A stretch of 49,164 bases of DNA, taken from the NCBI GenBank assembly GCA_032718475.1, contig JAUCBJ010005964.1, forward strand, positions 1-49,164, in the 5' to 3' direction. The position numbers were made by a program, and so were the translations under genes. This DNA comes from Nemertoderma westbladi. Lineage: Eukaryota; Animalia; Xenacoelomorpha. Below, piece after piece: positions 18,441-49,164 of the stretch (the first letter of the stretch is position 1; each line of letters opens with the position of its first letter). The notes under the pieces are model-generated. The model saw nothing but the letters and a program-made list of their open reading frames with translations. It was not told where the DNA came from and made no database searches.

Positions 18441-18549
18441 GAGTGTGTGTGTGTGTGTGTGTGGGGGGGGGGGGGGTGTATGTGTGTGTAGGGGTGTGTG
18501 TGTGTGTGTGTGTGTGTGGGGGTGGGGGTGTGTGTGTGTGTGGGGTGTG

Positions 18550-18584
<35 letters not shown>

Positions 18585-18594
18585 GCGTGTAGGG

Positions 18595-18625
<31 letters not shown>

Positions 18626-18638
18626 GTGTGTGGTGTGT
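18441..18638. repeat. Compound (TG)n/poly-G microsatellite (candidate empty target site)
   Basis: Directly visible; preceded by aacacg, as are the other two tracts. Confidence 0.95.
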
Positions 18639-18855
18639 CAATTTAAATCGAACAAAAAGGCAGAACATAAACAGTAAACAGTAAAAAATATACACCTTTT
18701 TATTTGGGGTTGGTGGCCGGTAGGGCGAAAAATCGAATGCTAGACTGCTAAAATAAGTCTGATCACCCCTCTGTACATACTGTAGGTCTAATACTCACAA
18801 ATGTTGAATTTATATTGAATTATTTATTATTTTTATTATTATTTTAATAAATTTC

Positions 18856-22273: not shown

Positions 22274-22495
22274 AGTATTTTAATTCATTAATATTTTTTA
22301 ATCGAAAATGTGGCAAATATTATCAAAAAAAAATTATTGTAATAATAAGAATTTTTTTTGGCAGTAATAATAATTTTATCGCAATAATACTATTAATATT
22401 ATCGCATCAATATTAATTTTATCGCGAAAAAGTTATATTTTTTGTGATAATATTAGCCACTTTTTCGATCAAAAAAACTATTGAATGTTAATACT
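22274..22495. mobile_element. AT-rich MITE-like element with ~60-bp imperfect terminal inverted repeats
   Basis: agtatt..attca.ta..ttttt.atcgaaaa.gtggc.aatattatca.aaaaa mirrored by ttttt.tgataatatt.gccac.ttttcgat.aaaaa..ta.tgaat..aatact. Confidence 0.6.
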
Positions 22496-22696
22496 GCCGC
22501 TCTATTACAGCAGTTAGAATGTGTTGATTTATTTAATCAGTGTCGCCTCGTATAATTACAATTTAATTAATTGTTTCATAAATTTTAATATTATCACTAT
22601 TAATTTTAGAATTTCGATACAAATTATAATAATATTTATAACATTAAGAGCTTCTATCCTCAGAGGAATGGAAAATATTTCAGAGAAAATTATATA

Positions 22697-23426
22697 ATGG
22701 CGACGTGGCGGCACTAGGGTAGAGGAGTGGGACACCTTTATCTGGTGCATGGCGACGTGGCGGCACTAGGGTAGAGGAGTGGGACACCTTTATCTGGTGC
22801 ATGGCGACGTGGCGGCACTAGGGTAGAGGAGTGGGACACCTTTATCTGGTGCATGGCGACGTGGCGGCACTAGGGTAGAGGAGTGGGACACCTTTATCTG
22901 GTGCATGGCGACGTGGCGGCACTAGGGTAGAGGAGTGGGACACCTTTATCTGGTGCATGGCGACGTGGCGGCACTAGGGTAGAGGAGTGGGACACCTTTA
23001 TCTGGTGCATGGCGACGTGGCGGCACTAGGGTAGAGGAGTGGGACACCTTTATCTGGTGCATGGCGACGTGGCGGCACTAGGGTAGAGGAGTGGGACACC
23101 TTTATCTGGTGCATGGCGACGTGGCGGCGCTAGGGTAGAGGAGTGGGACACCTTTATCTGGTGCATGGCGACGTGGCGGCACTAGGGTAGAGGAGTGGGA
23201 CACCTTTATCTGGTGCATGGCGACGTGGCGGCACTAGGGTAGAGGAGTGGGACACCTTTATCTGGTGCATGGCGACGTGGCGGCACTAGGGTAGAGGAGT
23301 GGGACACCTTTATCTGGTGCATGGCGACGTGGCGGCACTAGGGTAGAGGAGTGGGACACCTTTATCTGGTGCATGGCGACGTGGCGGCACTAGGGTAGAG
23401 GAGTGGGACACCTTTATCTGGTGCAT
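22697..23426. repeat. GC-rich 52-bp tandem repeat, 14 copies
   Basis: Unit atggcgacgtggcggcactagggtagaggagtgggacacctttatctggtgc; only one substitution seen (near 23129). Confidence 0.98.
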
Positions 23427-23554
23427 TTATGGGAGATTATTAATATTACTATTATTATTATTTAAGTATTATTCTAATGTAATTTATATCCGATGTTTTG
23501 TGCTTATAATAATAATTTTGCATTGTTTATAGCGGTTTGATGCAATATGGTGAA

Positions 23555-26304: not shown

Positions 26305-26318
26305 TCTGCCGGATGGTG

Positions 26319-26773
26319 CAAACCGGGGAGACATACTGTACTTTTGACCCGCAAAGCGGGGAGCGATTTCAAACCGGGGAGCTCCCCGGTTTGTAAGACG
26401 TCTATAATCATATTAAGGAGGTCAAATATAATCAGTATGACGTCATTTTTTATAAATATAATTTTATTTTATATCATCCCCGGTTTGTGTTTATGAAGCG
26501 AACTTGGTGTGTCTATGAATGTGGAGTGTATCGGAATTTATGGTCCCCGGTTTGTGTGAAAAATATCCGTGCTCCCCGCTTTGTAATATTCGCCGCTAGA
26601 TGTCGCAAAATCGTAGGTGAAAAATTATACGAAGCCAATAACGGAGTGTGACAGTCCCCGGTTTGCTACTATCCCGCCTAGCAGCCTAGTAAGAACTAAG
26701 TAGATTACCTGTACCTCTACATATGTCGCAAATTTCCATAAACCAATAATTGAGTGTGTCGCTCCCCGGTTTG
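26319..26773. repeat. Subterminal motif cluster: 9 copies of TCCCCG(G/C)TTTG, including the perfect 24-bp palindrome at 26370-26393
   Basis: Copies at 26319, 26352, 26370 (inverted) and 26383, 26477, 26544, 26573, 26655, 26763. Confidence 0.9.
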
Positions 26774-27362
26774 AAAATGTTGTGCCTTTATTTTGTTAGT
26801 AGAAATGCATGGCTAATTACATGTATTTTAATTAAACATATCAATATGTTCAAAAACTGTTCCAATATGTACGACGCTAATGAAAATCAACTCTAATAAA
26901 AAAATTTTCCTTCGTTTGCAGAGATGGTGTATACATATGTGCACTTTTCCTCATGTTGTATTTTTTATTCCAGCAAAATCATATCTTTAAAAGTGTCCTT
27001 AAATTTTGCATGTATGTATAAGGCCCAGGACGCATCGTGTGCCCTAGGGGTCTCATCATGTGAAAAAAAAAGTTTCCAGGGGAACTTGTTTTTGAAAAAA
27101 ATACGATATAATTGAAGTCAATAAAACCATAATAGATACAAACTTGCGGTTTCCCAACTCAAATAAAGGGTTAGGTGAGCACACTACTATGGTTAATTAG
27201 AAAATTCAGTTACATAAGACGCTGCAAAAATTTACGTTAATTACGCTAATCTAACGTTATAGACTATCTTGTCTTCGGTTAGGGAAAAAGTTTCAAAAAA
27301 ATAAATTTTCCAACCGTTTCATAACAGTTCAATAGCTAAATGTCCACAAAACATTAATCCTA

Positions 27363-27601
27363 AACGTAAAGCTGACGTTTAATTAAATTAAATGTTAATT
27401 AAGCAACTCCTGAAAGTTCATCTCATCCACGCCACGCCCTACATTTAGATCTAACCGGGAGTCGTTGCTCATATACTACTCTCCTTCCATATGATTAACT
27501 TTAATAATATGAATTCAGTTATGTTCCCCGCTTCGATAACGAAAATAAATGTCTGTGTCAACAAGCATTGTTTTGGGTTAACAAAACGATGTACTTTTTG
27601 T
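27363..27601. repeat. ~240-bp direct repeat DR1 flanking the 30-bp array
   Basis: aacgtaaagc...gatgtactttttgt repeated at 31322-31557. Confidence 0.93.
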
Positions 27602-30600
27602 AATCAGTACTACAAAATACGAACAACTGGTAATCCGTACTACAAAATACGAACAACTGGTAATCAGTACTACATAATACGAACAACTGGTAATCAGTAC
27701 TACAAAATACGAACAACTGGTAATCCGTACTACAAAATACGAACAACTGGTAATCAGTACTACAAAATACGAACAACTGGTAATCCGTACTACAAAATAC
27801 GAACAACTGGTAATCCGTACTACAAAATACGAACAACTGGTAATCAGTACTACATAATACGAACAACTGGTAATCAGTACTACAAAATACGAACAACTGG
27901 TAATCCGTACTACAAAATACGAACAACTGGTAATCAGTACTACATAATACGAACAACTGGTAATCAGTACTACAAAATACGAACAACTGGTAATCCGTAC
28001 TACAAAATACGAACAACTGGTAATCAGTACTACAAAATACGAACAACTGGTAATCCGTACTACATAATACGAACAACTGGTAATCAGTACTACATAATAC
28101 GAACAACTGGTAATCAGTACTACATAATACGGACAACTGGTAATCAGTACTACATAATACGAACAACAACTGGTAATTAGTACTACAAAATACGAACAAC
28201 TGGTAATCCGTACTACATAATACGAACAACTGGTAATCCGTACTACATAATACGAACAACTGGTAATCAGTACTACATAATACGAACACAACTGGTAATT
28301 AGTACTACAAAATACGAACAACTGGTAAACCGTACTACATAATACGAACGACTGGTAATCAGTACTACACAATACGAACGACTGGTAATCAGTACTACAA
28401 AATACGAACAACTGGTAATCAGTACTACAAAATACGAACAACTGGTAATCAGTACTACACAATACGAACGACTGGTAATCAGTACTACATAATACGAACG
28501 ACTGGTAATCAGTACTACATAATACGAACGACTGGTAATCAGTACTACATAATACGAACAACAACTGGTAATCCGTACTACATAATACGAACAACAACTG
28601 GTAATTAGTACTACAAAATACGAACAACTGGTAATCAGTACTACAAAATACGAACAATTGGTAATCAGTACTACATAATACGAACAACTGGTAATCCGTA
28701 CAACAAAATACGAACAACTGGTAATCCGTACTACATAATACGAACAACTGGTAATCCGTACTACATAATACGAACAACAACTGGTAATCAGTACTACATA
28801 ATACGAACAACTGGTAAACCGTACTACATAATACGAACAACTGGTAAACCGTACTACATAATACGAACAACAACTGGTAATCAGTACTACATAATACGAA
28901 CAACAACTGGTAATCAGTACTACATAATACGAACGACTGGTAATCAGTACTACATAATACGAACGACTGGTAATCAGTACTACAAAATACGAACAACTGG
29001 TAATCAGTACTACACAATACGAACGACTGGTAATCAGTACTACATAATACGAACGACTGGTAATCAGTACTACATAATACGAACAACTGGTAATCCGTAC
29101 TACATAATACGAACAACAACTGGTAATCCGTACTACATAATACGAACAACAACTGGTAATTAGTACTACATAATACGAACAACTGGTAATCAGTACTATA
29201 TAATACGAACAACTGGTAATCCGTACTACAAAATACGAACAACTGGTAATCAGTACTACAAAATACGAACAACTGGTAATCAGTACTACATAATACGAAC
29301 AACTGGTAATCCGTACTACATAATACGAACAACAACTGGTAATCCGTACTACATAATACGAACAACAACTGGTAATCCGTACTACATAATACGAACAACA
29401 ACTGGTAATCAGTACTACATAATACGAACAACTGGTAATCAGTACTATATAATACGAACAACTGGTAATCAGTACTACAAAATACGAACAACTGGTAATC
29501 AGTACTACAAAATACGAACAACTGGTAATCAGTACTACATAATACGAACAACTGGTAATCCGTACTACATAATACGAACAACAACTGGTAATCCGTACTA
29601 CATAATACGAACAACAACTGGTAATTAGTACTACAAAATACGAACAACTGGTAATCAGTACTACAAAATACGAACAACTGGTAATCAGTACTATATAATA
29701 CGAACAACTGGTAATCAGTACTACAAAATACGAACAACTGGTAATCAGTACTACAAAATACGAACAATTGGTAATCAGTACTACATAATACGAACAACAA
29801 CTGGTAATCCGTACTACATAATACGAACAACAACTGGTAATTAGTACTACAAAATACGAACAACTGGTAATCAGTACTACAAAATACGAACAATTGGTAA
29901 TCAGTACTACATAATACGAACAACTGGTAATCCGTACAACAAAATACGAACAACTGGTAATCCGTACTACATAATACGAACAACTGGTAATCCGTACTAC
30001 ATAATACGAACAACAACTGGTAATCAGTACTACATAATACGAACAACTGGTAAACCGTACTACATAATACGAACAACTGGTAAACCGTACTACATAATAC
30101 GAACAACAACTGGTAATCAGTACTACATAATACGAACAACAACTGGTAATCAGTACTACAAAATACGAACAACTGGTAATCCGTACTACATAATACGAAC
30201 AACTGGTAATCCGTACTACATAATACGAACAACAACTGGTAATCAGTACTACATAATACGAACAACTGGTAAACCGTACTACATAATACGAACAACTGGT
30301 AAACCGTACTACATAATACGAACAACAACTGGTAATCAGTACTACATAATACGAACAACAACTGGTAATCCGTACTACATAATACGAACAACTGGTAAAC
30401 CGTACTACATAATACGAACAACTGGTAAACCGTACTACATAATACGAACAACTGGTAAACCGTACTACATAATACGAACAACAACTGGTAATCAGTACTA
30501 CAAAATACGAACAACTGGTAAACCGTACTACATAATACGAACAACTGGTAAACCGTACTACATAATACGAACAACAACTGGTAATCAGTACTACATAATA

Positions 30601-31157
30601 CGAACAACAACTGGTAATCCGTACTACATAATACGAACAACAACTGGTAATCAGTACTACAAAATACGAACAACTGGTAAACCGTACTACATAATACGAA
30701 CAACTGGTAAACCGTACTACATAATACGAACAACTGGTAAACCGTACTACATAATACGAACAACTGGTAAACCGTACTACATAATACGAACAACTGGTAA
30801 ACCGTACTACATAATACGAACAACAACTGGTAATCAGTACTACAAAATACGAACAACTGGTAAACCGTACTACATAATACGAACAACTGGTAAACCGTAC
30901 TACATAATACGAACAACAACTGGTAATCAGTACTACATAATACGAACAACAACTGGTAATCCGTACTACATAATACGAACAACTGGTAAACCGTACTACA
31001 TAATACGAACAACTGGTAAACCGTACTACATAATACGAACAACTGGTAAACCGTACTACATAATACGAACAACAACTGGTAATCAGTACTACAAAATACG
31101 AACAACTGGTAATCCGTACTACATAATACGAACAACTGGTAATCAGTACTACATAAT
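27601..31157. repeat. 30/33-bp minisatellite (more than 110 units) in E1
   Basis: Unit taatc(a/c)gtactaca(a/t)aatacgaacaactgg with +aac and aaacc variants. Confidence 0.98.
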
Positions 31158-31321
31158 TTACTGTCTCTCGCCATAATAATGTATTATAATGCCTTATCTA
31201 TTCACAACTTAGTACATAGTTTCCTGCACAATACAAATACAATACAAATACAATACAAATAAAACATTTGTATATTAAAACAAAATACAACAAATATGCA
31301 CAGTAGTTACTACAAAATATG

Positions 31322-31557
31322 AACGTAAAGCAGACGTTTAATTTAATTAAATGTTAATTAAGCAACTCCTGAAAGTTCATCTCATCCACGCCACGCCCTA
31401 CATTTAGATCTAACCGGGAGTCGTTGCTCATATACTCTCCTTCCATATGATTATCTTTAATGATATGAATTCAGTTATGTTCCCCGCTTCGATAACGAAA
31501 ATAAATGTCTGTGTCAACAAGCATTGTTTTGGGTTAACAAAACGATGTACTTTTTGT
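31322..31557. repeat. ~240-bp direct repeat DR2, just downstream of the YR stop codon
   Basis: Matches 27363-27601. Confidence 0.93.
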
Positions 31558-32315
31558 CAGCTACTTGTGTTTTAGTTGTTTTTCACTGATAGCTCTTCTA
31601 AGATTTTCTTCCGATTGTTCCGATAATAGTCTTTGACATTTCGCCATGTTCTACCACTTAGCACGGGATTTTCAATTATTAACTTTTCCAGAGGATCTTT
31701 ACCTGGTAGCTTTTCAAGTAAAAGCATCTCCTGAATTCCATTAAGATTCGTCAAGGCCGTTGATTCCGCCATGGTCCAGGGTCTTTTTATTATTGGTTTG
31801 CGTACCGGTACTGAATAAAAAAAGATAGATGTGAATAAGTAACGTTATCAGTTTATCACGTTTAGGATACCATAAGCACAATAATATGATTATAATATTT
31901 AATGCCAAAATGTGCCATTTTTCTATTTAATTTCTAATAAGGTGCTTACAATGTAGCATTGTAACATGAATGAAATATTAATATTATGGAATTAAATAAG
32001 TATAACAGCAATTTATTGCACACTACTACTATTTATACAAACAAGCAGTACTCTTCTTGTTCTTGGCTAAAGTACAAGATGCTGAATTCTTTACAGCAAC
32101 AGTACAAATAAAGTTAATTTCCCATAGAGTAAAATAATTATTCATTAATATAATGTTACCGTTTCGATAAAAACAATGACGGTGAATTTCATTGAAAAAA
32201 GTTATGTTAATTGACATTATTTTCTATTATCAAAACGGGGAATTTTTAAAAAGAATAAGACATGAATACCTAAAATTTTCATGTTATTAATAAAAGTTCA
32301 GTTTTTAAGCACAAA

Positions 32316-32422
32316 ATAGTCGGCTGAAGCCTGAGGCTACCCGAAGGTAGGGGTGGACGCTACTCCTATCCTAAGAATTGCTCCCAGTTATTTAACTGGT
32401 ACTCATTTTATCGACCTCAGGG
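32316..32422 (-). mobile_element. SINE central-domain-like fragment in YR intron 2 (also at about 44050-44156)
   Basis: The minus strand reads gaggtcgataaaatgagtaccagttaaataactggg, which resembles the conserved core of Deu/Nin-type SINEs as I recall it. Confidence 0.45.
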
Positions 32423-32565
32423 CAGGGACTTGCATCGAATCGAATCGAAAGCAATTTTTCGTCTTCTATTTCCCATATATTTTTCGATTCGATTTCGATT
32501 CGATTCAGCACAATTTCGATTCGACTCAAGTAAAAAATTTCGACTTCGATTCGATTATTCGACCT
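32423..32565. repeat. (TTCGA)-rich MITE-end-like repeat in YR intron 2 (also at about 44157-44299)
   Basis: cagggacttgcatcgaatcgaatcgaa followed by many ttcga units. Confidence 0.55.
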
Positions 32566-33458
32566 ATGAATATTAACTTAATTATTTGTCATTAAATATA
32601 CATTATAAATTGTATTCTTAACCTGTATTTTCAAAATTCGATATGCCAATAGCTCTGCTCGTGGATGAAGTAGGGGATGGCCGACCAATACTCCTATGAT
32701 CATCAATCCCATCAACACCAATTTGAACAGCAGCAGCAACTTGATCATAACCTTCTATTTGAGTAACAGGTTCGACGTCAGAATCTGAATCTGAATTGTC
32801 CATAAGGTGGTCTATAAATGAAAAGAATGAAAATTATTGTAAAATGTAGGAATGGAAAGATAATACATAACCTAGAAATTGTAAGTTGAAATCCCATCTC
32901 GCCAAATTTAATTTTCTCCTTCATGTTAAATTATCAATTTAGGGATGCAGATTAAAGTCGCACGTTATTCCAACCAAAACAATAAACCCAATCAATAGAA
33001 CAGGTTACAGATTCATTGTTGGGAGTAATCAGCTGTTATTTGCTTCGATTTACCCCATTTTGATTGCGCTGGACCCCCCCCCCCCCCCCCCCCTCTTACC
33101 TACAGATAAGATACCTAGATAAATATTAAATAGACACACTCACCTATAGAATTATCATTCAGGATATCCTCCAGATTACGCCCTTTAAATTCAGCCAGGT
33201 TGCCCTTCTCCATTACCATGAACAGCTTGGATAACTTGGTTACCCTCTGGACTTTATCAGGTAAGCGGTAAAACTCTCGATGAACGCGTATGTCGTGGCC
33301 CATAAAACCTGCCAACAGCTCGAGGTCTTGTTCGCTAAGATTTAGCATAGCCACACTTGTGGCAATATGCTTACGTAACTTCGTAGATGTCATAGCCTTT
33401 GGATTTGTGAGGTTGACAACAGAAACAAGGCTGTGCAGAGCATCATATCCTCGGACGT

Positions 33459-34617
33459 ATCCTTCTTCAAGGCCTTTGATTCAGTCTCTCGCTCACGTAT
33501 GTTCAGCATACTTTCATTATATGGGATTCCTGATGAAATTATTGCAGCAATCAGATCAGTATACGATGGTTCGACAACATTTGTGTCTACTGTTGACGGT
33601 GACACAGAACCATTTGAAGTGTTATGGGGCGTCCTCCAAGGAGACACACTTGCACCATTCTTGTTCATTATTGTGGTTGACTATGTTCTACGCATGTCCT
33701 TAGATCATCATAATGATGATGGGGTGATGATAACTCCACCTACTGGCTCCAGAAGTCGAGGAAATCCTGCCAAGTACCTAACTGATCTAGACTTTGCTGA
33801 TGACTTAGGAGTACTCTCAGAATCATTAGAGGGAGCCCAGCGGCTCCTCAGCTCATTAGAACATGCTGCTTCTAGTGTTGGTCTTTTTATTAACTCCAGA
33901 AAGACCAAAATTCTGACAGTTAACTTTGAAAGTCCTCAGCAAGTCTCTGATCGGATGAGCATAAGCTCAAAGGATGGTATGCTTGAGCATGTGGACGACT
34001 TCTGTTACCTGGGATCATGGATCCGGAAGTCAGGTGAGGACCTTCGAATACGTAAGGGAAAGGCATGGGCAGCCTTGAATAGGCTTTCCAGGATTTGGAA
34101 GTCACCTAGAATTAATCGGAAACTTAAGGTCCGATTATTTAGAGCAGCAGTAGTTCCAGTACTCCTCTACGGGAGTCCATGCTGGGCTCTAACTGCTGAG
34201 GATACCAAATCTCTGGATGGCACATTCACAAGAATGCTACGCCGGGTACATTGTGTCAAGTACAATGCACACATCTCCAACCAGACACTATATAACATTG
34301 GAGGTGTCTCATTGGTTCCCCCAAGCTTGACACTAGAACAAAATCGCCTCCGCTTTGCAGGACATTGCTTTCGCCGTGAGGACCAGCCAGTGCATAATCT
34401 TGTACTTTGGCAGCCTCATGGAGTGAATAAGCATGGTGGACAGCCCATGACTTTCTTGAGACGCATCTTAAAGGACACTGGCCTTAAAGATGCGGATGAT
34501 CTAGCAAATGTCATGGGTGATAGGGAGTTGTGGCGGTGCAATTTTGTTGACAAGCCGGCACAGCATTCTTAAAAATGCAGCTGCAATGCAGCATGCCGAT
34601 CCTAGTAGTCCTAGTAG
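33459..34617 (+). mobile_element. 5'-truncated RTE-like LINE with open RT ORF, 13-bp TSD and (CTAGTAGT) tail
   Basis: FKAFDSV, GVLQGDTLAPFLF, DFADD, FCYLGS, VLLYG, RLRFAGH; stop at 34572; TSD tatcctcggacgt at 33446-33458 and 34618-34630; single empty site in copy 2 at 45178-45190. Confidence 0.95.
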
Positions 34618-36469
34618 TATCCTCGGACGTGGGAAACACTACCATAGTTCGCACGAGCAAAGAGATATTCATTCGTGCTATTAACGCCAACTTCCTCTCG
34701 ATACTTCAACAAACACTCGATAGCTCCGATGGTTTTACCATTTAAAAGAACTGGTACAGTACGACCACATTTACCAACAATCTCCATTACTTGAAAGAGT
34801 CGACACATGTTCTGTTCGAGAACACCCAAGTGGCTATTGTCATCTGACACCTCATTTACATGATGACGTTTACTAAAGTCATCAACCTTAATTTTCGATA
34901 CCTCTCCTTGTCTACGTCTGTTAAAGATAATTAAGTACGCAAGTACAAGCTCATTAAGGGATTGCCAACTTTGTTTAATTTGAATTTCCTTATCAATTAA
35001 TGACATATGTTCTGGAATCCTTTGCTGAATATATTCAGTTAGTTTAACAATGTCGCTGACTAATGGGAGCAATTGTGGCTTATTACGCTTGTTCTGTTGA
35101 ATGGTACGTAGTGCATGACCTGAGACTGACACTGGCCATCTTATGGTGCACAGTGATAGGAAGTTGTCCGCAGACTCCATAGTATCAGTATCATTTAGTT
35201 CAATTGAACTAGCCTTCAATAGTGTTGCACATTTCTTTACAGAGTGACCCTGCTTCAATGCCAGGGAAGGATGCTGAAAGGTGTTGGACGAAGAATCAAA
35301 ACCAGCCAACTTGTATACTGCATCCACTATAACTGTTAGTTTAGACGGGATGATGAAATCCTGCAACTTTGCCCTTGGAAAGTTCTCGCATTCTCTCAAT
35401 TGTATCAAGAGACGCCCAAGTTCACGCAACTTATCTCTGATATAACCTCTACGGTCGTAATCATGGCCATTCTTATGGCACTCCCTTTTAGCAAATTCCA
35501 ATATTAAGGCATCTGACCTTACAGCAAAAGAAACTGGGCCGTTGTTCATAGAAGATATAATCTCTTTCACCGTTTTGGATAGATCTGATGGACTTCCAAT
35601 ACAGGGTATGAGCAGTTTACTTTCATAGGACCACCTCCCTGTTCCTAGACAACCATGTCCAGACTCTTTACCTATATCACGCAATGGGCAACGATGGCGC
35701 CAAAGATCACCTTTTAAATACCACCCCATACAAACAGGGCATGGGCCATAGTTATCTACAGTATAACATTGGGATTCTGAAACGCTCTTACTATGTCGAT
35801 ATACAACCTGTAATGTGCCTTGGTTCTTTTCTAGAACTTCAATATTGTGTACATGAGCCCCAAGGTTACGAATCTTGCTCTGTAGAATATGTTTTTCAGC
35901 TAAAGAACCAGCTATCATGATGCGAATGACAAAATCTTCATTTGAATGCTTTCGTGTCAAATGGTTATGCAATTTTGACTGCGGCTGTTTACAATAAAAA
36001 CAGTATTGCTTTTTATCATAACTACGACCACCTTCATTATTAGTGTAGGGTATTTGAACACTTGATTCCTTATTCATTGAGTACTTAGCCTTCACTTTAG
36101 ATTTCGTTGAAATAGAGCATCCTACTCCGGGATTAATAATTTCTTCATTCTTATTGTACTCATCATCACAAGATTCTGATATCTCATCATCAGAAAGTAC
36201 CCAGTCTTTATCTCGACAATCATCACAGCCAAGGTCTTCTAATATATCAAGTGAAAATGGATCTGACTCTATTGCAGATGGTGAAATGGTTGTAAGTGGT
36301 CTCATACATAAGTCTGAAATGTTTTCATCTTGAAGATCTATTGATTCAAGTATCGCTATCGCTGATTCATCATCATCATTGGGCATGTAATCACTGAAGT
36401 AGTCATCGATGAGGTCGGTGACCTTCTTGGCAGGAGAACAAGTATTTAAATCAGAGGGAGCAATAGAGA

Positions 36470-37840
36470 TAACGGGGACATCAGTATCAGTAAGAGGGGG
36501 GATATAGACAGCAGTGGGGGCAACTACTGCGAGACTGACATCAGTCGGAGTAATTGGTGGGACATAGACAGCAGTAGGGGCAACTTGGGTGACAGAGACA
36601 TCTGTCGGAGCAACAGGGGGGACAGAGAAAGCAGTCGGAGGAACAGGGGGGACAGAGACAGCAGTGGGGTTTACAAGTAGGTTATCGACATCTGTCGGAG
36701 CAACAGGGGGGATAGAGACTGCGGTGGGGGCAACAAGTGGGACATTGATATCAGTTGGAGCAACAGGGGGAACAAAGACATCAGTCGGAGTAATTGGTGA
36801 GTCATAGACAGCAGTAGGGATAACTTGGGTGACAGAGACATCTGTCGGAGCAACAGGCGAGATAGAGAAAGCAGTCGGAGCAACAGGGGGGACAGAGGCA
36901 GCAGTGGGGGCTACAAGTGGGATATCGATATCTGCCGGAGCAACAGGGGGGACAGAGACATCAGTGGGGACAACAAGGGGGAACGGGACAGAAGTGCGGT
37001 CTACAAGTAGGTTATCGACATCTGTCGGAGCAACAGGGGAGATAGAGACTGCGGCGAGGGCAACAAGTGGGACATTGTTATCAGTCGGAGCAACAGGGGG
37101 AACAAAGACATCAGTCGGAGTAATTGGTGAGTCATAGACAGCAGTAGGGATAACTTGGGTGACAGAGACATCTGTCGGAGCAACAGGGGAGATAGAGAAA
37201 GCAGTCGGAGCAACAGGGGGAACAGAGACAGCAGTCGGAGCAACAGGAGGGACAGATACAGCATTCAGAGTAATTGGTGGGACATAGGCAGCAGTCGGAG
37301 TAATTGGTGGGACATAGACAGCAGTAGGGGTAACTTGGGTGACAGAGACATCTGTCGGAGCAACAGGGGAGATAGAGAAAGCAGTCGGAGCAACAGGGGG
37401 AACAGAGACAGCAGTCGGAGCAACAGGAGGGACAGATACAGCATTCAGAGTAATTGGTGGGACATAGGCAGCAGTCGGAGTAATTGGTGGGACATAGACA
37501 GCAGTAGGGGCAACTTGGGTGACAGAGACATCTGTCGGAGCAACAGGGGAGATAGAGACTGCGGTGGGGGCAACAAGTGGGACATTGTTATCAGTCGGAG
37601 CAACAGGGGGAACAAAGACATCAGTCGGAGTAATTGGTGGGACATAGACAGCAGTAGGGGCAACTTGGGTGACAGAGACATCTGTCGGAGCAACAGGGGA
37701 GATAGAGAAAGCAGTCGGAGCAACAGGGGGGACAGAGACAGCAGTGGGGGCTACAAGTGGGATATCGATATCTGCCGGAGCAACAGGGAGGACAGAGACA
37801 GCAGTGGGGGCAACAAGGGGGAACGGGACAGAAGTGGGGA
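36470..37840 (-). repeat. Coding 30-bp repeat (VPPVAPTAVS-type decapeptides) in the YR N-terminus, copy 1
   Basis: gacagagacagcagtcggagcaacaggggg-type units with higher-order blocks. Confidence 0.95.
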
Positions 37841-38065
37841 CAATATGGACTGCACTAACAAGTCTCTTTCTGAGTTGATATTGTTTTCGAATACCATCGT
37901 TACAGACGTTTTCTTTCCGAAATCTTTTTCTTATACCATCCATGTTTCTTACTGAGGGAAGGTGGCTAAATATCTCCAATCATCATTTACGTTGTAGTTT
38001 ACGAATAACTCTATCAAAACTAGTTCTACTAATAACTCTATAAGGTAAAACAAACTTGGTACGTA

Positions 38066-38256
38066 CGGGTTGGCATACAATCTTCGCCCGGGGAACCTTC
38101 GCCCGCAAGGCAATCTTCGCCAGTGAGCAACCTTCGCCCAATAAGATTTGTGTTAGTTGCCATTTAAGGTTTCCACCGGGCGAATAGTTGCTCATTTTGA
38201 GGGCGAAGATTGGACGAGGACGAAGCTTTCTCGCCGGTGAAGTTTGCTACGCACCG
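38066..38256. mobile_element. Small MITE with CGG...CCG ends, TA flanks and TTCGCC subrepeats
   Basis: ta|cgggttggcatacaatcttcgccc ... ggtgaagtttgctacgcaccg|ta; ttcgcc repeats on the left, ggcgaa repeats on the right. Confidence 0.65.
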
Positions 38257-39288
38257 TACATACACAGTCTCGTGCTGCGCGTACATTTAATTTAGTTATT
38301 AGATATTCATTTAAGTTATTAGAGTTTCGTTTCAGAGAACAATTATTCTTTTGTAAATTGTTTGAAAACGAAAGTTCATAAATCAGTATTTAGCATTTAA
38401 ATTTTCAAGTCAGAAATATACAAATTTTTAGGCTATTATAATTTTCAGTGTCTGTAAATATAATGAAACATACCCTAAATTCGCTCTCTGTACAAAAGTG
38501 TGCGATTAAACAATTAAATTAGTCCCCCCATGACCTACTATAACTTATAGTATGTCACCCCCTCCCATTTAGAAGACCGCCAGTAGGCCTATACTTTTCA
38601 ATAAATTGAATGTGAGTCAAACATATAGATTTCCAAAACAATACACTACAGCCATGGGAACATGTTACAGTTTCATATTTGTCGTTATCAGCAGTGGTTG
38701 TCGGAGTAGCGTATACAATATTTATACATCCACCAAGTACATGACTACTAATAGAGTTAATAGATAAATTTATCTCCATTTCAGGGGGTTCTTTGGGTTT
38801 CAGTGTGAAATTTATTTTGTAATTATTTATTTATTATAGTATTTATTAAATAATATAATGCAATCTGAAATATGAATACAATTCTATGTATGTTACCGGA
38901 GTTACCCAATACAGTAATAATGAAATTATGCCTAAATTTATCTAAGACAAATTTAATAAATCTTCCATCCCCGCTTTGATAATAAATTACGAAACTCTCA
39001 GACACACACAATCAATAAAGAAGGATGATCGCATACATAAGTATCACCCATCATTGTTTGTACTAGACTAAATATATGCCTCACAATCTTGTTGTAATTG
39101 TATTGGCTAATAGTGCTTTTCTACGAGACGGGGTGGCCAGTATTCTAGTAGGTTATGTCCTATTATTATTGTACCTAAACAACTAAGCCAGATACATTGG
39201 GCCTATAGTTTCCATAACAACTGCTAACAAGCCCCATTTTGTAAAAAACAAACGAACACCTCTAACACTTTTCAAGTACATAGGTGTG

Positions 39289-39502
39289 TCCCCGGTTTGC
39301 TAAGTGTGTCCCCGGTGTGCATGGTAGAAACGGGACATTAAATTTCTATTTTCAGTTAATTAATAGGTGCATTAAAGATAGATAATTTTCCGCTGATTAC
39401 GAATTTGCACCTGTCGTTAAAATTCCTTAATGACCAAATGAATTACAAGCGTTTCCTTTTGGTCCCCAGTTTGTTGTTACGAAATTTGGCCTCCCCGGTT
39501 TC
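39289..39502. repeat. Four TCCCCGGTTT-like motifs at the putative other end of E1
   Basis: Copies at 39289, 39309, 39463, 39492. Confidence 0.85.
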
Positions 39503-39514
39503 CATAATAAACAC

Positions 39515-39523
39515 GTAGGGGTG

Positions 39524-39570
<47 letters not shown>

Positions 39571-39576
39571 AGGGGT
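39515..39576. repeat. (TG)n tract at the E1/E2 junction, bracketed by GTAGGGGT direct repeats
   Basis: gtaggggt at 39515-39522 and 39569-39576. Confidence 0.92.
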
Positions 39577-40622
39577 TCTGCCGGATGGTGCAAACCGGGG
39601 AGACATACTGTACTTTTGACCCGCAAAGCGGGGAGCGATTGCAAACCGGGGAGCTCCCCGGTTTGTAAGACGTCTATAATCATATTAAGGAGGTCAAATA
39701 TAATCAGTATGACGTCATTTTTTATAAATATAATTTTATTTTATATCATCCCCGGTTTGTGTTTATGAAGCGAACTTGGTGTGTCTATGAATGTGGAGTG
39801 TATCGGAATTTATGGTCCCCGCTTTGTGTGAACAATATCCGTGCTCCCCGCTTTGTAATATTCGCCGCTAGATGTCGCAAAATCGTAGGTGAAAAATTAT
39901 ACGAAGCCAATAACGGAGTGTGACAGTCCCCGGTTTGCTACTATCTCGCCTAGTAAGAACTAAGTAGATTACCGGTACCTCTACATATGTCGCAAATTTC
40001 CATAAACCAATAATTGAGTGTGTCGCTCCCCGGTTTGAAAATGTTGTGCCTTTATTTTGTTAGTAGAAATGCATGGCTAATTACATGTATTTTAAACATA
40101 TCAATATGTTCAAAAACTGTTCCAATATGTACGAAGCTAATGAAAATCAACTCTAATAAAAAAATTTTCCTACGTTTGCAGAGATGGTGTATACATATGT
40201 GCACTTTTCCTCATGTTGTATTTTTTATTCCAGCAAAATCATATCTTTAAAAGTGTCCTTAAATTTTGCATATATGTATAAGGCCCAGGATGCATCGTGT
40301 GCCCTAGGGGTCTCATCATGTGAAAAAAAAAGTTTCCAGGGGAACTTGTTTTTGAAAAAAATACGATATAATTGAAGTCAATAAAACCATAATATATACA
40401 AACTTGCGGTTTCCCAACTCAAATAAAGGGTTAGGTGAGCACACTACTATGGTTAATTAGAAAATTCAGTTACATAAGACGCTGCAAAAATTTACGTTAA
40501 TTACGTTAATCTAACGTTATAGACTATCTTGTGTTCGGTTAGGGAAAAAGTTTCAAAAAAATAAATTTTCCAACCGTTTCATAACAGTTCAATAGCTAAA
40601 TGTCCACAAAACATTAATCCTA

Positions 40623-40858
40623 AACGTAAAGCAGATGTTTAATTTAATTAAATGTTAATTAAGCAACTCCTGAAAGTTCATCTCATCGACGCCACGCCCT
40701 ACATTTAGATCTAACTGGGAGTCGTTGCTCATATACTCTCCTTCCATATGATTAACTTTAATAATATGAATTCAGTTATGTTCCCCGCTTCGATAACGAA
40801 AATAAATGTCTGTGTCAACAAGCATTGTTTTGGGTTAACAAAACGATGAACTTTTTGT
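40623..40858. repeat. DR1 of E2 (partner at about 43039-43279)
   Basis: Same ~240-bp direct repeat pair as in E1. Confidence 0.9.
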
Positions 40859-42886
40859 AATCAGTACTACAAAATACGAACAACTGGTAATCAGTACTAC
40901 ATAATACGAACAACTGGTAATCAGTACTACATAATACGAACAACTGGTAATCAGTACTACATAATACGAACAACTGGTAATCCGTACTACATAATACGAA
41001 CAACTGGTAATCCGTACTACAAAATACGAACAACTGGTAATCAGTACTACAAAATACGAACAACTGGTAATCCGTACTACAAAATACGAACAACTGGTAA
41101 TCAGTACTACAAAATACGAATAACTGGTAATCAGTACTACAAAATACGAACAACTGGTAATCAGTACTACATAATACGAACAACTGGTAATCCGTACTAC
41201 AAAATTCGAACAACTGGTAATCAGTACTACATAATACGAACAACTGGTAATCAGTACTACATAATACGAACAACTGGTAATCCGTACTACAAAATACGAA
41301 CAACTGGTAATCAGTACTACAAAATACGAACAACTGGTAATCCGTACTACAAAATACGAACAACTGGTAATCAGTACTACAAAATACGAACAACTGGTAA
41401 TCCGTACTACAAAATACGAACAACTGGTAATCAGTACTACATAATACGAACAACTGGTAATCAGTACTACATAATACGAACAACTGGTAATCCGTACTAC
41501 AAAATACGAACAACTGGTAATCAGTACTACAAAATACAAACAACTGGTAATCAGTACTACATAATACGAACAACTGGTAATCAGTACTACAAAATACGAA
41601 CAACTGGTAATCAGTACTACATAATACGAACAACTGGTAATCCGTACTACATAATACGAACAACTGGTAATCCGTACTACAAAATACGAACAACTGGTAA
41701 TCAGTACTACATAATACGAACAACTGGTAATCAGTACTACATAATACGAACAACTGGTAATCCGTACTACATAATACGAACAACTGGTAATCCGTACTAC
41801 AAAATACGAACAACTGGTAATCCGTACTACATAATACGAACAACTGGTAATCCGTACTACAAAATACGAACAACTGGTAATCAGTACTACAAAATACGAA
41901 CAACTGGTAATCAGTACTACAAAATACGAACAACTGGTAATCCGTACTACAAAATACGAACAACTGGTAATCAGTACTACATAATACGAACAACTGGTAA
42001 TCAGTACTACAAAATACGAACAACTGGTAATCAGTACTACAAAATACGAACAACTGGTAATCAGTACTACAAAATACGAACAACTGGTAATCCGTACTAC
42101 AAAATACGAACAACTGGTAATCAGTACTACATAATACGAACAACTGGTAATCCGTACTACAAAATACGAACAACTGGTAATCCGTACTACATAATACGAA
42201 CAACTGGTAATCCGTACTACAAAATACGAACAACTGGTAATCAGTACTACAAAATACGAACAACTGGTAATCAGTACTACAAAATACGAACAACTGGTAA
42301 TCCGTACTACAAAATACGAACAACTGGTAATCAGTACTACATAATACGAACAACTGGTAATCCGTACTACATAATACGAACAACTGGTAATCCGTACTAC
42401 AAAATACGAACAACTGGTAATCAGTACTACATAATACGAACAACTGGTAATCCGTACTACATAATACGAACAACTGGTAATCCGTACTACAAAATACGAA
42501 CAACTGGTAATCAGTACTACATAATACGAACAACTGGTAATCAGTACTACAAAATACGAATAACTGGTAATCAGTACTACAAAATACGAACAACTGGTAA
42601 TCCGTACTACAAAATACGAACAACTGGTAATCAGTACTACAAAATACGAACAACTGGTAATCAGTACTACATAATACGAACAACTGGTAATCCGTACTAC
42701 AAAATACGAACAACTGGTAATCCGTACTACATAATACGAACAACTGGTAATCAGTACTACAAAATACGAACAACTGGTAATCAGTACTACATAATACGAA
42801 CAACTGGTAATCAGTACTACAAAATACGAACAACTGGTAATCAGTACTACATAATACGAACAACTGGTAATCAGTACTACAAAATT
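40858..42886. repeat. 30-bp minisatellite (about 67 units) in E2
   Basis: Strict 30-bp period with no 33-bp variants. Confidence 0.98.
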
Positions 42887-43293
42887 TACTGTATCTCGCC
42901 ATAATAATGTATTATAATGCCTTATCTATTCACAACTTAGTACATAGTTTCCTGCACAATACAAATACAATACAAATAAAACATTTGTATATTAAAACAA
43001 AATACAACAAATATGCACAGTAGTTACTACAAAATATGAACGTAAAGCAGATGTTTAATTTAATTAAATGTTAATTAAGCAACTCCTGAAAGTTCATCTC
43101 ATCCACGCCACGCCCTACATTTAGATCTAACCGGGAGTCGTTGCTCATATACTGTACTCTCCTTCCATATGATTATCTTTAATGATATGAATTCAGTTAT
43201 GTTCCCCGCTTCGATAACGAAAATAAATGTCTGTGTCAACAAGCATTGTTTTGGGTTAACAAAACGATGTACTTTTTGTCAGCTACTTGTGTT

Positions 43294-46200
43294 TTAGTTG
43301 TTTTTCACTGATAGCTCTTCTAAGATTTTCTTCCGATTGTTCCGGTAATAGTCTTTGACATTTCGCCATGTTCTACCACTTAGCACGGGATTTTCAATTA
43401 TTAACTTTTCCAGAGGATCTTTACCTGGTAGCTTTTCAAGTAAAAGCATCTCCTGAATTCCATTAAGATTCGTCAAGGCCGTTGATTCCGCCATGGTCCA
43501 GGGTCTTTTTATTATTGGTTTGCGTACCGGTACTGAATAAAAAAAAAGATAGATGTGAACAAGCAACGTTATCACTTTATCACGTTTAGGATACCGTAAG
43601 CACAATAATATGATTACAATATTTAATGCCAAAATGTGCCATTTTTCTATTTAATTTCTAATAAGGTGCTTACAATGTAGCATTGTAACATGAATGAAAT
43701 AGTAATATTATGGAATTATATAAGTATAACACATCATACAAAGCAATTTATTGCACACTACTACTCTTTATACAAAAAGCAGTACTATTCTTGTTCTTGG
43801 CTAAAGTACAAGATGCTGAATTCTTTACAGCAACAGTACAAATAAAGTTAATTTCCCATAGAGTAAAATAATTATTCATTAATATAATGTTACCGTTTCG
43901 ATAAACACAATGACGGTGAATTTCATTGAAAAAAGTTATGTTAATTGACATTATTTTCTATTATCAAAACGGGGAATTTTTAAAAAGAATAAGACATGAA
44001 TACCTAAAATTTTCATGTTATTAATAAAAGTTCAGCTTTTAAGCACAAAATAGTCGGCTGAAGCCTGAGGCTACCCGAAGGTAGGGGTGGACGCTACTCC
44101 TATCCTAAGAATTGCTCCCAGTTATTTAACTGGTACTCATTTTATCGACCTCAGGGCAGGGACTTGCATCGAATCGAATCGAAAGCAATTTTTCGTCTTC
44201 GATTTCCCATATATTTTTCGATTCGATTTCGATTCGATTCAGCACAATTTCGATTCGACTCAAGTAAACAATTTCGACTTCGATTCGATTATTCGACCTA
44301 TGAATATTAACTTAATTATTTGTCATTAAATATACATTATAAATTTTATTCTTAACCTGTATTTTCAAAATTCGATATGCCAATAGCTCTGCTCGTGGAT
44401 GAAGTAGGGGATGGCCGACCAATACTCCTATGATCATCAATCCCATCAACACCAATTTGAACAGCAGCAGCAACTTGATCATAACCTTCTATTTGAGTAA
44501 TAGGTTCGACGTCAGAATCAGAATCTGAATTGTCCATAAGGTGGTCTATAAATGAAAACAATGAAAATTATTGTAAAATGTAGGAATGGAAAGATAATAC
44601 ATAACCCAGAAATTGTAAGTTGAAATCCCATCTCGCCAAATTTAATTTTCTCCTTCATGTTAAATTATCAATTTAGGGATGCAGATTAAAGTCGCACGTT
44701 ATTCCAACCAAAACAATAAACCCAATCAATAGAACAGGTTACAGATTCATTGTTGGGAGTAATCAGCTGTTATTTGCTTCGATTTACCCCATTTTGATTG
44801 CGCTGGACCCCCCCCCCCCCCCCCCTCTTACCTACAGATAAGATACCTAGATAAATATTAAATAGACACACTCACCTATAGAATTATCATTCAGGATATC
44901 CTCCAGATTACGCCCTTTAAATTCAGCCAGGTTGCCCTTCTCCATTACCATGAACAGCTTGGATAACTTGGTTACCCTCTGGACTTTATCAGGTAAGCGG
45001 TAAAACTCTCGATGAACGCGTATGTCGTGGCCCATAAAACCTGCCAACAGCTCGAGGTCTTGTTCGCTAAGATTTAGCATAGCCACACTTGTGGCAATAT
45101 GCTTACGTAACTTCGTAGATGTCATAGCCTTTGGATTTGTGAGGTTGACAACAGAAACAAGGCTGTGCAGAGCATCATATCCTCGGATGTGGGAAACACT
45201 ACCATAGTTCGCACGAGCAAAGAGATATTCATTCGTGCTATTAACGCCAACTTCCTCTCGATACTTCAACAAACACTCGATAGCTCCGATGGTTTTACCA
45301 TTTAAAAGAACTGGTACAGTACGACCACATTTACCAACAATCTCCATTACTTGAAAGAGTCGACACATGTTCTGTTCGAGAACACCCAAGTGGCTATTGT
45401 CATCTGACACCTCATTTACATGATGACGTTTACTAAAGTCATCAACCTTAATTTTCGATACCTCTCCTTGTCTACGTCTGTTAAAGATAATTAAGTACGC
45501 AAGTACAAGCTCATTAAGGGATTGCCAACTTTGTTTAATTTGAATTTCCTTATCAATTAATGACATATGTTCTGGAATCCTTTGCTGAATATATTCAGTT
45601 AGTTTAACAATGTCGCTGACTAATGGGAGCAATTGTGGCTTATTACGCTTGTTCTGTTGAATGGTACGTAGTGCATGACCTGAGACTGACATTGGCCATC
45701 TTATGGTGCACAGTGATAGGAAGTTGTCCGCAGACTCCATAGTATCAGTATCATTTAGTTCAATTGAACTAGCCTTCAATAGTGTTGCACATTTCTTTAC
45801 AGAGTGACCCAGCTTCAATGCCAGGGAAGGATGCTGAAATGTGTTGGACGAAGAATCAAAACCAGCCAACTTGTATACTGCATCCACTATAACTGTTAGT
45901 TTAGACGGGATGATGAAATCCTGCAACTTTGCCCTTGGAATGTTCTCGCATTCCCTCAATTGTATCAAGAGACGCCCAAGTTCACGCAACTTATCTCTGA
46001 TATAACCTCTACGGTCGTAATCATGGCCATTCTTATGGCACTCCCTTTTAGCAAATTCCAATATTAAGGCATCTGACCTTACAGCAAAAGAAACTGGGCC
46101 GTTGTTCATAGAACATATAATCTCTTTCACCGTATTGGATAGATCTGATGGACTTCCAATACAGGGTATGAGCAGTTTACTTTCATAGGACCACCTCCCT

Positions 46201-48395
46201 GTTCCTAGACAACCATGTCCAGACTCTTTACCTATATCACGCAATGGGCAACGATGGCGCCAAAGATCACCTTTTAAATACCACCCCATACAAACAGGGC
46301 ATGGGCCATAGTTATCTACAGTATAACATTGGGATTCTGAAACGCTCTTACTATGTCGATATACAACCTGTAATGTGCCTTGGTTCTTTTCTAGAACTTC
46401 AATATTGTGTACATGAGCCCCAAGGTTACGAATCTTGCTCTGTAGACTATGTTTTTCAGCTAAAGAACCAGCTATCATGATGCGAATGACAAAATCTTCA
46501 TTTGAATGCTTTCGTGTCAAATGGTTATGCAATTTTGACTGCGGCTGTTTACAATAAAAACAGTATTGCTTTTTATCATAACTACGACCACCTTCATTAT
46601 TAGTGTAGGGTATTTGAACACTTGATTCCTTATTCATTGAGTACTTAGCCTTCACTTTAGATTTCTTTGAAATAGAGCATCCTACTCCGGGATTAATAAT
46701 TTCTTCATTCTTATTGTACTCATCATCACAAGATTCTGATATCTCATCATCAGAAAGTACCCAGTCTTTATCTCGACAATCATCACAGCCAAGGTCTTCT
46801 AATATATCAAGTGAAAATGGATCTGACTCTATTGCAGATGGTGAAATGGTTGTAAGTGGTCTCATATATAAGTCTGAAATGTTTTCATCTTGAAGATCTA
46901 TTGATTCAAGTATCGCTATCGCTGATTCATCATCATCATTGGGCATGTAATCACTGAAGTAGTCATCGATGAGGTCGGTGACCTTCTTGGCAGGAGAACA
47001 AGTATTTAAATCAGAGGGAGCAATAGAGATAACGGGGACATCAGTATCAGTATGAGGGGGGATATAGACAGCAGTGGGGGCAACTACTGGGAGACTGACA
47101 TCAGTCGGAGTAATTGGTGGGACATAGACAGCAGTAGGGGCAACTTGGGTGACAGAGACATCTGTCGGAGCAACAGGGGGGACAGAGAAAGCAGTCGGAG
47201 CAACAGGGGGGATAGAGACAGCAGTGGGGTTTACAAGTAGGTTATCGACATCTGTCGGAGCAACAGGGGGGATAGAGACTGCGGTGGGGGCAACAAGTGG
47301 GACATTGATATCAGTTGGAGCAACAGGGGGAACAAAGACATCAGTCGGAGTAATTGGTGAGTCATAGACAGCAGTAGGGGCAACTTGGGTGACAGAGACA
47401 TCTGTCGGAGCAACAGGGGAGATAGAGAAAGCAGTCGGAGCAACAGGGGGGACAGAGACAGCAGTGGGGGCTACAAGTGGGATATCGATATCTGCCGGAG
47501 CAACAGGGGGGGCAGAGACATCAGTGGGGACAACAAGGGGGGACGGGACAGAAGTGCGGGCTACAAGTAGGTTATCGACATCTGTCGGAGCAACAGGGGA
47601 GATAGAGACTGCGGTGGGGGCAACAAGTGGGACATTGATATCAGTTGGAGCAACAGGGGGAACAAAGACATCAGTCGGAGTAATTGGTGAGTCATAGACA
47701 GCAGTAGGGGCAACTTGGGTGACAGAGACATCTGTCGGAGCAACAGGGGAGATAGAGAAAGCAGTCGGAGCAACAGGGGGGACAGAGACAGCAGTGGGGG
47801 CTACAAGTGGGATATCGATATCTGCCGGAGCAACAGGGGGGGCAACAAGGGGGAACGGGACAGAAGTGCGGGCTACAAGTAGGTTATCGACATCTGTCGG
47901 AGCAACCGGGGAGATAGAGACTGCGGCGGGGGCAACAAGTGGGACATTGATATCAGTTGGAGCAACAGGGGGAACAAAGACATCAGTCGGAGTAATTGGT
48001 GAGTCATAGACAGCAGTAGGGGCAACTTGGGTGACAGAGACATCTGTCGGAGCAACAGGGGGGACAGAGAATGCAGTCGGAGCAACAGGGGGGACAGAGA
48101 CAGCAGTCGGAGCAACAGGAGGGACAGATACAGCATTCGGAGTAATTGGTGGGACATAGGCAGCAGTCGGAGTAATTGGTTGGACATAGACAGCAGTAGG
48201 GGCAACTTGGGTGACAGAGACATCTGTCGGAGCAACAGGGGGGACAGAGACAGCAGTGGGGGCAACAAGGGGGAACGGGACAGAAGTGTGGACAATATGG
48301 ACTGCACTAACAAGTCTCTTTCTGAGTTGATATTGTTTTCGAATACCATCGTTACAGACGTTTTCTTTCCGAAATCTTTTTCTTATACCATCCAT
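43294..48395 (-). CDS. Three-exon tyrosine recombinase (about 1315 aa): P/T/V repeats, Zn-finger-like motifs, YR domain, C-terminal Myb/SANT-like domain; exons 48395-44876, 44545-44357, 43532-43294
   Basis: CFYC..HLTRKH; CPVC..WRHRC; catalytic set NRRRQGEV (R), GKCGR (K), TKLRK, FMGH, FYRL (Y); both GT-AG introns are phase 1 and join in frame; exon 3 KRPWT..E..PGK..P.L.GRTWRNVKDYYRN; further upstream or internal exons not excluded. Confidence 0.85.
47030..48290 (-). repeat. Coding 30-bp repeat in the YR N-terminus, copy 2
   Basis: Same unit as in copy 1, net 108 bp shorter, frame preserved. Confidence 0.95.
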
Positions 48396-48517
48396 GTTTC
48401 TTACTGAGGGAAGGTGGCTAAATATCTCCAATCATCATTTACGTCGTAGTTTACGAATAACTCTATCAAAACTAGTTCTACTAATAACTCTATAAGGTAA
48501 AACAAACTTGGTACGTA

Positions 48518-48708
48518 CGGGTTGGCATACAATCTTCGCCCGGGGAACCTTCGCCCGCAAGGCAATCTTCGCCAGTGAGCAACCTTCGCCCAATAAGATT
48601 TGTGTTAGTTGCCATTTTAGGTTTCCACCGGGCGAATAGTTGCTCATTTTGAGGGCGAATATTGGACGAGGACGAAGCTTTCTCGCCGGTGAAGTTTGCT
48701 ACGAACCG
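48518..48708. mobile_element. Small CGG...CCG MITE with TA flanks (paralogue of 38066-38256)
   Basis: ta|cgggttggc...gctacgaaccg|ta. Confidence 0.65.
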
Positions 48709-49164
48709 TACATACACAGTCTCGTGCTGCGCGTACATTTAATTTAGTTATTAGATATTCATTTAAGTTATTAGAGTTTCGTTTCAGAGAACAATTATTC
48801 TTTTGTAAATTGTTTGAAAACGAAAGTTCATAAATCAGTATTTAGCATTAAAATTTTCAAGTCAGAAATATACAAATTTTTAGGCTATTATAGTTTTATC
48901 TGTAAATATAATGAAACATACCTTAAATTCGCTCTCTGTACAAAAGTGTGCGATTAAACAATTAAATTAGTCCCCCCATGACCTACTATAACTTATAGTA
49001 TGTCACCCCCCCCCCCCCCCCCCCCCCCCATTTAGAAGACCGCCAGTAGGCCTATACTTTTCAATAAATTGAATGTGAGTCAAACATATAGATTTCCAGT
49101 CCAGGTTGGTTTTCAGGGACACAGTTTTTAATTCAACATAGACCAAAATTTGTCAATGAAACGA

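Follow-up and report, generated by a model that had tools for sequence, protein, structure and literature searches.

Two near-identical copies of a predicted tyrosine-recombinase element, likely separate insertions 58 bp apart in a TG/G tract of Nemertoderma westbladi, with a likely subterminal protein-binding motif

CryptonV elements are animal DNA transposons that have a tyrosine recombinase as their only enzyme and, in some families, insert into microsatellites, features shared by the element analyzed here, whose protein family may be that of CryptonV. Arm-type sites and coupling sequences are familiar from the integrases of lambda and Tn916/Tn1549. The open-literature account of the microsatellite-targeting group amounts to about one sentence in the accessible text of PMC8869645, where 'some families' of CryptonV are placed in microsatellites with reference to Kapitonov and Jurka (2012, Repbase Reports), and CryptonV also stands in the classification tables of PMC4455052 and PMC5753468, in the parts available. 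CryptonF, S, A and I elements encode only a recombinase, lack long terminal inverted repeats and show short direct repeats derived from a donor/target match (available sections of PMC3212892 and PMC9977147), all of which holds for the present element. In the same sections, animal CryptonA and CryptonI are described without terminal repeats and without a C-terminal domain, whereas the present element encodes Cys/His clusters, ends its gene with a Myb-like exon and is flanked by a direct repeat of 8 bp. Endogenous nimaviruses encode telomere-repeat-specific tyrosine recombinases with a C2H2 domain and insert into (TAACC)n (PMC10871703, accessible text); these resemble the element in being associated with eukaryotes, in their C2H2 domain and in their insertion into a simple repeat, but nimaviruses are large viral genomes in (TAACC)n and the element has no viral genes. 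Dada elements, as presented in the available part of PMC3706591, are likewise DNA transposons with a specific target, where tandem stacks of them build up, but they use a DDE transposase, target RNA genes and produce target duplications of 6-7 bp.

In the window analyzed here (the whole 49,164-nt stretch of contig JAUCBJ010005964.1), the right end of one element copy, E1, faces the left end of a second, E2, across a short TG/G repeat. The elements and their flanks are as follows, with strand given where one was assigned.

26304..39517: E1, 13.2 kb including a LINE insertion and arrays of minisatellites, recognized from self-BLAST blocks common to E2; termini TTCTGCC (left) and CACGTA (right), with boundaries good to ~2 bp from the E1/E2 comparison and from relatives
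39576..49098: E2, as far as it resembles E1 (up to 49098), covering its left end and body; the right end lies outside the window
39518..39575: spacer, 58 bp, G4 (TG)8 TT (TG)13 CGTGTA G4
18443..18640: empty compound TG/G tract, element-free, within duplicate segment A1
26194..26303: left part of the occupied tract, within duplicate segment A2
39515..39522, plus: GTAGGGGT copy 1, final 3 bases of E1 and target
39569..39576, plus: GTAGGGGT copy 2, target (also at 18589 in the empty tract) and first base of E2
26296..26303, plus: GGGGTGTG on the left flank of E1, found again as the first 8 bases beyond its right end (39518-39525), a short direct repeat

E1 and E2 are ~99% identical (61 substitutions in 6235 aligned non-array bases, 0.98%) and also differ in array lengths and one LINE; no internal copy of either terminus was found within E1 or E2 at up to two mismatches. 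The sequence between them can be traced through segment A, which is present as A1 (15794-18640) and A2 (from 23555) with 27 substitutions in 2637 bases (1.0%). The empty tract of A1 reads ...(TG)7 G3 (TG)9 TT (TG)10 CGTGTA G4 (TG)7 G17 and the occupied tract of A2 reads ...(TG)7 G3 (TG)2 / E1 / G4 (TG)8 TT (TG)13 CGTGTA G4 / E2, a comparison that accounts for every interruption, once each and in the same order. Two diagnostic interruptions are found only at 18560 and 18582 in the empty tract and at 39534 and 39562 in the spacer. Since the 58-bp spacer matches the element-free tract at 18443-18640 interruption by interruption, it is target DNA, that is, a piece of the host tract between two insertion points, each of which corresponds to a G4-(TG)n boundary of the empty tract. 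The direct GTAGGGGT repeats that an initial annotation had seen bracketing the TG tract are present, starting at 39515 and 39569.

The occurrence of GGGGTGTG on both sides of E1 fits the donor/target match of active CryptonF (available text of PMC9977147), with 8 bp around E1 as against the 4-6 bp given for Crypton direct repeats in the accessible part of PMC3212892. The left flank of E2 is GGGG only, four bases less than the GGGGTGTG of E1, which needs either a loss of (TG)2 or a mismatched crossover region. Mobility is indicated by the empty tract at 18443-18640 and by two different flanks for one relative family.

Several other features lie around these copies. Positions 15794-23554 and 23555-26303 form a 7.76-kb tandem duplication or a second haplotype, 1.0% diverged, in which a 107-bp x7 array is identical in both copies. 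Segment A ends in AGAACACG right before the tract (18434-18442; 26187-26193); this resembles the right terminus AAACACGTA, is not accompanied by a motif array, and may reflect chance or mark where a different repeat-targeting family ends. Some 20 bp beyond the right side of the empty tract, 18659-18666 matches the 8-bp left terminus of the element in inverted orientation, possibly by chance; the same 8 bp are otherwise found only at the two left ends. Each element holds a 240-bp segment twice (27363-27601 and 31322-31557 in E1; 40623-40858 and 43039-43279 in E2) on either side of a 30-bp minisatellite array of 116 units in E1 and 68 in E2, and this segment contains a copy of the end motif described below with two mismatches. 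Unrelated sequence occupies 49099-49164 after the abrupt end of E2/E1 similarity (nested insertion or truncation).

The ends themselves are marked by arrays of a short motif. The relevant features are listed here; L numbers denote related loci.

39289, 39309, 39463 and 39492 (span 39289..39502), plus: four E1 right-end motif copies, all pointing toward the terminus, the inner two at offsets -56 and -27 from it
39502..39517, plus: final 16 bp of E1 on its right side, closing with CACGTA; terminus as in L038/L044/L075 and L043, with variants in L047 and L062
39576..39602, minus: E2 left terminus and innermost inverted motif, the motif starting 27 bp from the first flanking base
39591, 39624 and 39642, minus: E2 left-end motif copies (TCCCCGGTTTG scan, at most one mismatch)
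39655, 39749, 39816, 39845, 39927 and 40027, plus: E2 left-end motif copies from the TCCCCGGTTTG scan
39591..40037: E2 left-end motif array, nine copies, three on minus and six on plus
39642..39665: palindrome, 24 bp, perfect, two motif copies tail-to-tail
26304..26773: E1 left end, nine motif copies (26319-26773) as at the E2 left end, preceded only by TG tract

The descriptive claims of the initial annotation largely held. CTCCCCGGTTT (39491-39501) and AAACCGGGGAG (39592-39602), reported as facing each other, are exact reverse complements; a scan for TCCCCGGTTTG with at most one mismatch returned the same four copies on the left and nine on the right, with a fifth left-side copy at 38968, outside the range of that count; and the palindrome at 39642-39665 is perfect. 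The observation that the motif keeps to the element ends stood for 23 of 25 11-mer matches, which lie within 560 bp of an end, but not for two internal ones (32231 and 43965), which represent a single internal position present in E1 and E2 alike. The abundance of the motif is not due to chance, with 27 matches in the window to the TCCCCGGTTT 10-mer at up to one mismatch compared with a shuffle mean of 2.26, and none of 100 shuffles reaching 27.

Read outward, both element ends carry CTCCCCGGTTT with its start 27 bp from the first flanking base, an offset that depends on element boundaries accurate to ~2 bp, and the last 30 bases of the left and right ends match at 18 positions. The left-end array of E1 (26319-26773) has no right end facing it. 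The final 16 bp of E1 (39502-39517) likely hold the putative recombinase core site. Folding of 39440-39700 gave a z of -2.5, which is due to the inverted motifs and the palindrome and was not counted as evidence for a single-strand substrate.

The same end structure was sought among 375 related loci, of which the best 80 (462 kb in total) were used. Of 29 (TG)5+ tracts in these loci, six are preceded by ACxxGTA, and these ACxxGTA/(TG)n ends belong to four families (L038/L044/L075, L043, L047 and L062) at 36-38% protein identity. The four occupy two tree branches separate from that of the window, with three of the four forming one clade, in a tree (75 rows covering at least 450 query residues, 6 of the 80 loci excluded; FastTree, midpoint root) that serves only for branch counting. 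A variant motif (GTCCTC.. or GGCACC..) stands at -27 in all four families, followed farther in by another at -53 to -55, where the window has -27 and -56. Among (TG)6+ tracts, 6 of 15 have 7-11 GTCCYC copies in the preceding 600 bp (background 0.17), and exact TCCYCGGTTTG matches number two in the 462 kb of loci, both inside these end arrays. L044 and L038/L075, which are >99% identical, diverge immediately past the tract, so the tract-side boundary is an element end. The relative ends match at 13-16 of 30 bases; statistics on this match are post hoc because the ends were chosen by eye.

Conservation of motif sequence and offset over such a distance suggests binding by an element-encoded domain, and the TCCCCGGTTTG motif is likely a subterminal site to which the protein encoded by the element would bind; a host factor may be the binder instead. 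The pattern is not general among the relatives. No ACxxGTA/(TG)n end was seen in 74 of the 80 loci, many of whose contigs are short; L001, a long and close relative, is bounded by AT-rich repeats with the motif absent, and L005, close as well, also has no such end. In L032 the last motif lies at -37, and the ACxxGTA/CACGTA end is downstream of the gene in the relatives and upstream of it in the window's element. A strict terminus-plus-motif pattern with one fixed spacing and base set matched none of the 80 loci. When dispersed 7-mer arrays were scanned for blindly, 42 of 80 loci were flagged, the majority owing to coding repeats, and the top 7-mer array stood directly before (TG)n only in L038/L044/L075 and L062.

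Two further features were noted among the relatives. At 8693-9128 of L016, ~1.7 kb past the last exon, there are 12 dispersed copies of another motif (of the TGTGTCATG type) in both orientations, including a near-palindromic pair, and the contig stops before any repeat tract. L001 (54-196 and 11403-11468) and L079 (9839-9890) have borders of (AAT)n/(AAG)n, (AAAT)n or (TAG)n; the tracts bordering these two loci hint at family-specific repeat targets and mark candidate ends.

Both copies encode a predicted zinc-finger/tyrosine-recombinase/Myb-like protein, with the frame open in E2.

44847..48431, minus: E2 main frame, 1194 codons, open, with a Pro/Val/Thr repeat, two Cys/His clusters and a tyrosine-recombinase domain
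43306..43560, minus: likely last exon of E2, which recurs in relatives and has no Pfam match
33115..37979, minus: recombinase frame of E1, interrupted at ~33458-34618 by a LINE fragment

The small downstream exon of E2 (43306..43560), which we take from its appearance to be Myb/SANT-like, has matches downstream of the recombinase in 13 of the 80 related loci and in 7 of 120 proteins. A protein search with the last 607 residues of the E2 frame returned 599 matches at E 1e-10 or better (7991 scored). Among the 120 matches listed, named homologues came from echinoderms, molluscs, a hemichordate, fish, frog and beetle; none of the 120 bore a transposon name, homologues being labelled only 'uncharacterized'. 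No relative was found in a metagenome scan with the single protein or in any of 28 stretches in a viral contig scan.

A structure model built from 101 sequences reached a pLDDT of 87, and a single-sequence model of the same protein (pLDDT 34) was set aside. XerH was the first structure match (E 3e-4), followed by XerA, Cre and the Tn1549 and lambda integrases; for the lambda and Tn1549 integrases the modeled similarity is at the level of the fold only (E 0.016-0.09). R398-400, K447, R522, H548 and Y557 are conserved in 98-100% of the 101 rows and by analogy are putative catalytic residues. Pfam Phage_integrase matched the E2 protein at E 0.0027, below cut-off. From the model, the element protein is predicted to be a tyrosine recombinase.

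Like Cryptons, the element combines a predicted tyrosine recombinase bearing these conserved residues with the absence of long terminal inverted repeats and a short direct repeat around E1. Neither a DDE transposase nor a reverse transcriptase belonging to the element itself was found: the sole reverse transcriptase within E1 belongs to the LINE fragment, which E2 does not have, and no further Pfam domain was found in P0001, in a scan covering part of the short E2 frames. DUF3504 (PF12012), the CryptonA domain, was detected in none of 21 proteins scanned nor in P0002; it occurs as an extra domain in 4 of 39 very long fish gene models, which are probably fused models. GCR1_C, the CryptonF domain, was likewise absent by Pfam from the 21 proteins, P0002 and the last exon. 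As to microsatellite insertion, both copies lie in the TG/G tract and four relative families end at (TG)n.

Other coding remnants were recorded. The LINE fragment in the E1 recombinase gene (33458-34618; RT, DUF6451) is flanked by a 13-bp target duplication, and an 86-bp piece at 13189-13274 is related to it. Relatives P0030, P0084, P0102, P0104 and P0111 carry additional N-terminal SET, BRCT or OTU domains where the window protein has its Pro/Val/Thr repeat. Elsewhere in the window, oppositely oriented BEL/Pao retrotransposon fragments (891-2983, minus; 5410-8392, plus) flank a 62-bp x37 array, and a fibrinogen-domain gene with a coiled coil lies at 14387-15468.

With good though not full confidence, we read the locus as the right end of E1 and the left end of E2, likely separate insertions 58 bp apart, with TCCCCGGTTTG likely a subterminal protein-binding site. 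The observed support consists of the ~99% identical copies, the empty tract holding the spacer once, the 8-bp repeat on either side of E1, a motif set back 27 bp from each terminus, and relatives that share this terminus and offset. In the mechanism that we propose, the protein would use its Cys/His or Myb-like domain to bind the motif arrays and would bring the two ends together, and the catalytic tyrosine would cut at the termini. The joined ends would then recombine with the (TG)n target where a G run meets TG, and a short direct repeat would be left behind. As some tract remains to the left and right, further insertion is possible, and a second hit on the surviving tract would stack copies head to tail.

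We regard as unlikely, yet foremost among the alternatives, a single insertion followed by recombinase-driven unequal exchange, in which a sister copy contributed its left end to a crossover with the target 58 bp right of the element, giving element-spacer-element; the spacer would still be host DNA. Such an exchange needs no second donor, agrees with the precise join at the left terminus and with the equal divergence of E1/E2 and A1/A2, and has precedent in the rearrangements linked to Cryptons at target sites (PMC9977147, in the part available), but it predicts a second spacer after E2, beyond the window. The 61 substitutions and the differences in array lengths and the LINE between E1 and E2 are compatible with both models. 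With no right end of E2 in the window, the locus does not tell independent insertion apart from recombinase-driven tandem duplication.

It is quite improbable that the tandem arrangement stems from an assembly mis-join, in which E1/E2 (or A1/A2) would be alleles, each inserted in the same tract and written in tandem. The divergence of E1/E2 (0.98%) equals that of A1/A2 (1.0%), as two haplotypes might show, and no contig bridges the tract, a result that is uninformative as the repeat is skipped in the contig layout; against this, the two left flanks differ as the empty tract predicts. The empty site is valid even as an allele, so the reading of the spacer as target would be unchanged by a mis-join.

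The initial annotation had taken the locus for an end-to-end junction of the circle type, with inverted motifs around a TG spacer. The symmetry of the pair about the spacer stood, but the 11-mers do not flank it directly: they lie 90 bp apart, made up of 16 bp of element, 58 bp of repeat and 16 bp of element. Placed 16 bp inside each terminus, the motifs are subterminal (arm-like) rather than core sites. A captured circle or concatemer junction with the motifs as core sites is very improbable, even though the E1 right end does face the E2 left end, the inverted 11-mers are symmetric about the spacer, and repeat-spanning episomes or concatemers are possible for nimavirus elements in repeats (PMC10871703, accessible text). 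Recombinase sites have two inverted arms of 11-13 bp around a crossover spacer of 6-8 bp (PMC3212892, available sections), as against 58 bp of spacer and 90 bp between motifs here; the spacer exists element-free at 18443-18640, in exactly the tract position expected, and the left flank of E1 is without it. A true circle joint would link the CACGTA and TTCTGCC termini via at most 8 bp.

Scarcely credible is an independent MITE at 39280-40035 with an internal TG tract, despite the inverted motifs around a central tract and a contig depth ~4-fold higher in the left than in the right half in two of three runs, since the right half (from 39576) is found again at 26304, where it lacks the left half and continues into the recombinase gene, and no loose ends or contig breaks occur at 39280 or 40035 in the rows listed for X1-X3. 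The depths in X1, X2 and X3 were 410, 164 and 187 on the left and 112, 40 and 183 on the right, where depth is not copy number, and these contigs (two samples) cover both halves and stop at the tract, which the layout skips.

Returning to the preferred reading of two likely separate insertions, the element works like CryptonV, a known kind, and its end anatomy is the part that is undescribed within the open literature available. The subterminal arrays at fixed offsets and the ACxxGTA terminus are not in the accessible CryptonV text, and a search of the open literature, with Repbase Reports and most subscription papers outside its scope, found no description of them; both may already stand in Repbase entries. 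Lambda and Tn916/Tn1549 resemble the element in having repeated sites at a fixed setback from the crossover, in unequal numbers per end, but they are bacterial and their arm-site binding has been shown, whereas for the element we infer it. A broader interpretation, offered tentatively as possible rather than probable, is that a widespread animal family has lambda/Tn916-like ends, with arm-type arrays (-27 and ~-55), a short terminal core and a crossover that need not match (TG)n; the arrays would then be bound by the zinc-finger or Myb-like domain of the enzyme.

What makes the locus valuable is not a circle junction but the combination of an open gene, ends that are mapped and a site without an element. 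For curation of such elements, the rule would be ACxxGTA beside (TG)n with the motif at -27, and a recombinase inserting ~10 kb into (TG)n could interest tool makers. The window supplies the open recombinase gene of E2, both termini to ~2 bp, a candidate binding motif shared by distant families and an empty target. The circular intermediate of Cryptons is hypothesized and so far undemonstrated (PMC10104507, in the part available). If the broader interpretation is true, no earlier eukaryotic tyrosine recombinase that targets (TG)n would have had its sites mapped finely enough for reconstitution, and the circular intermediate proposed for Cryptons could be tested directly.
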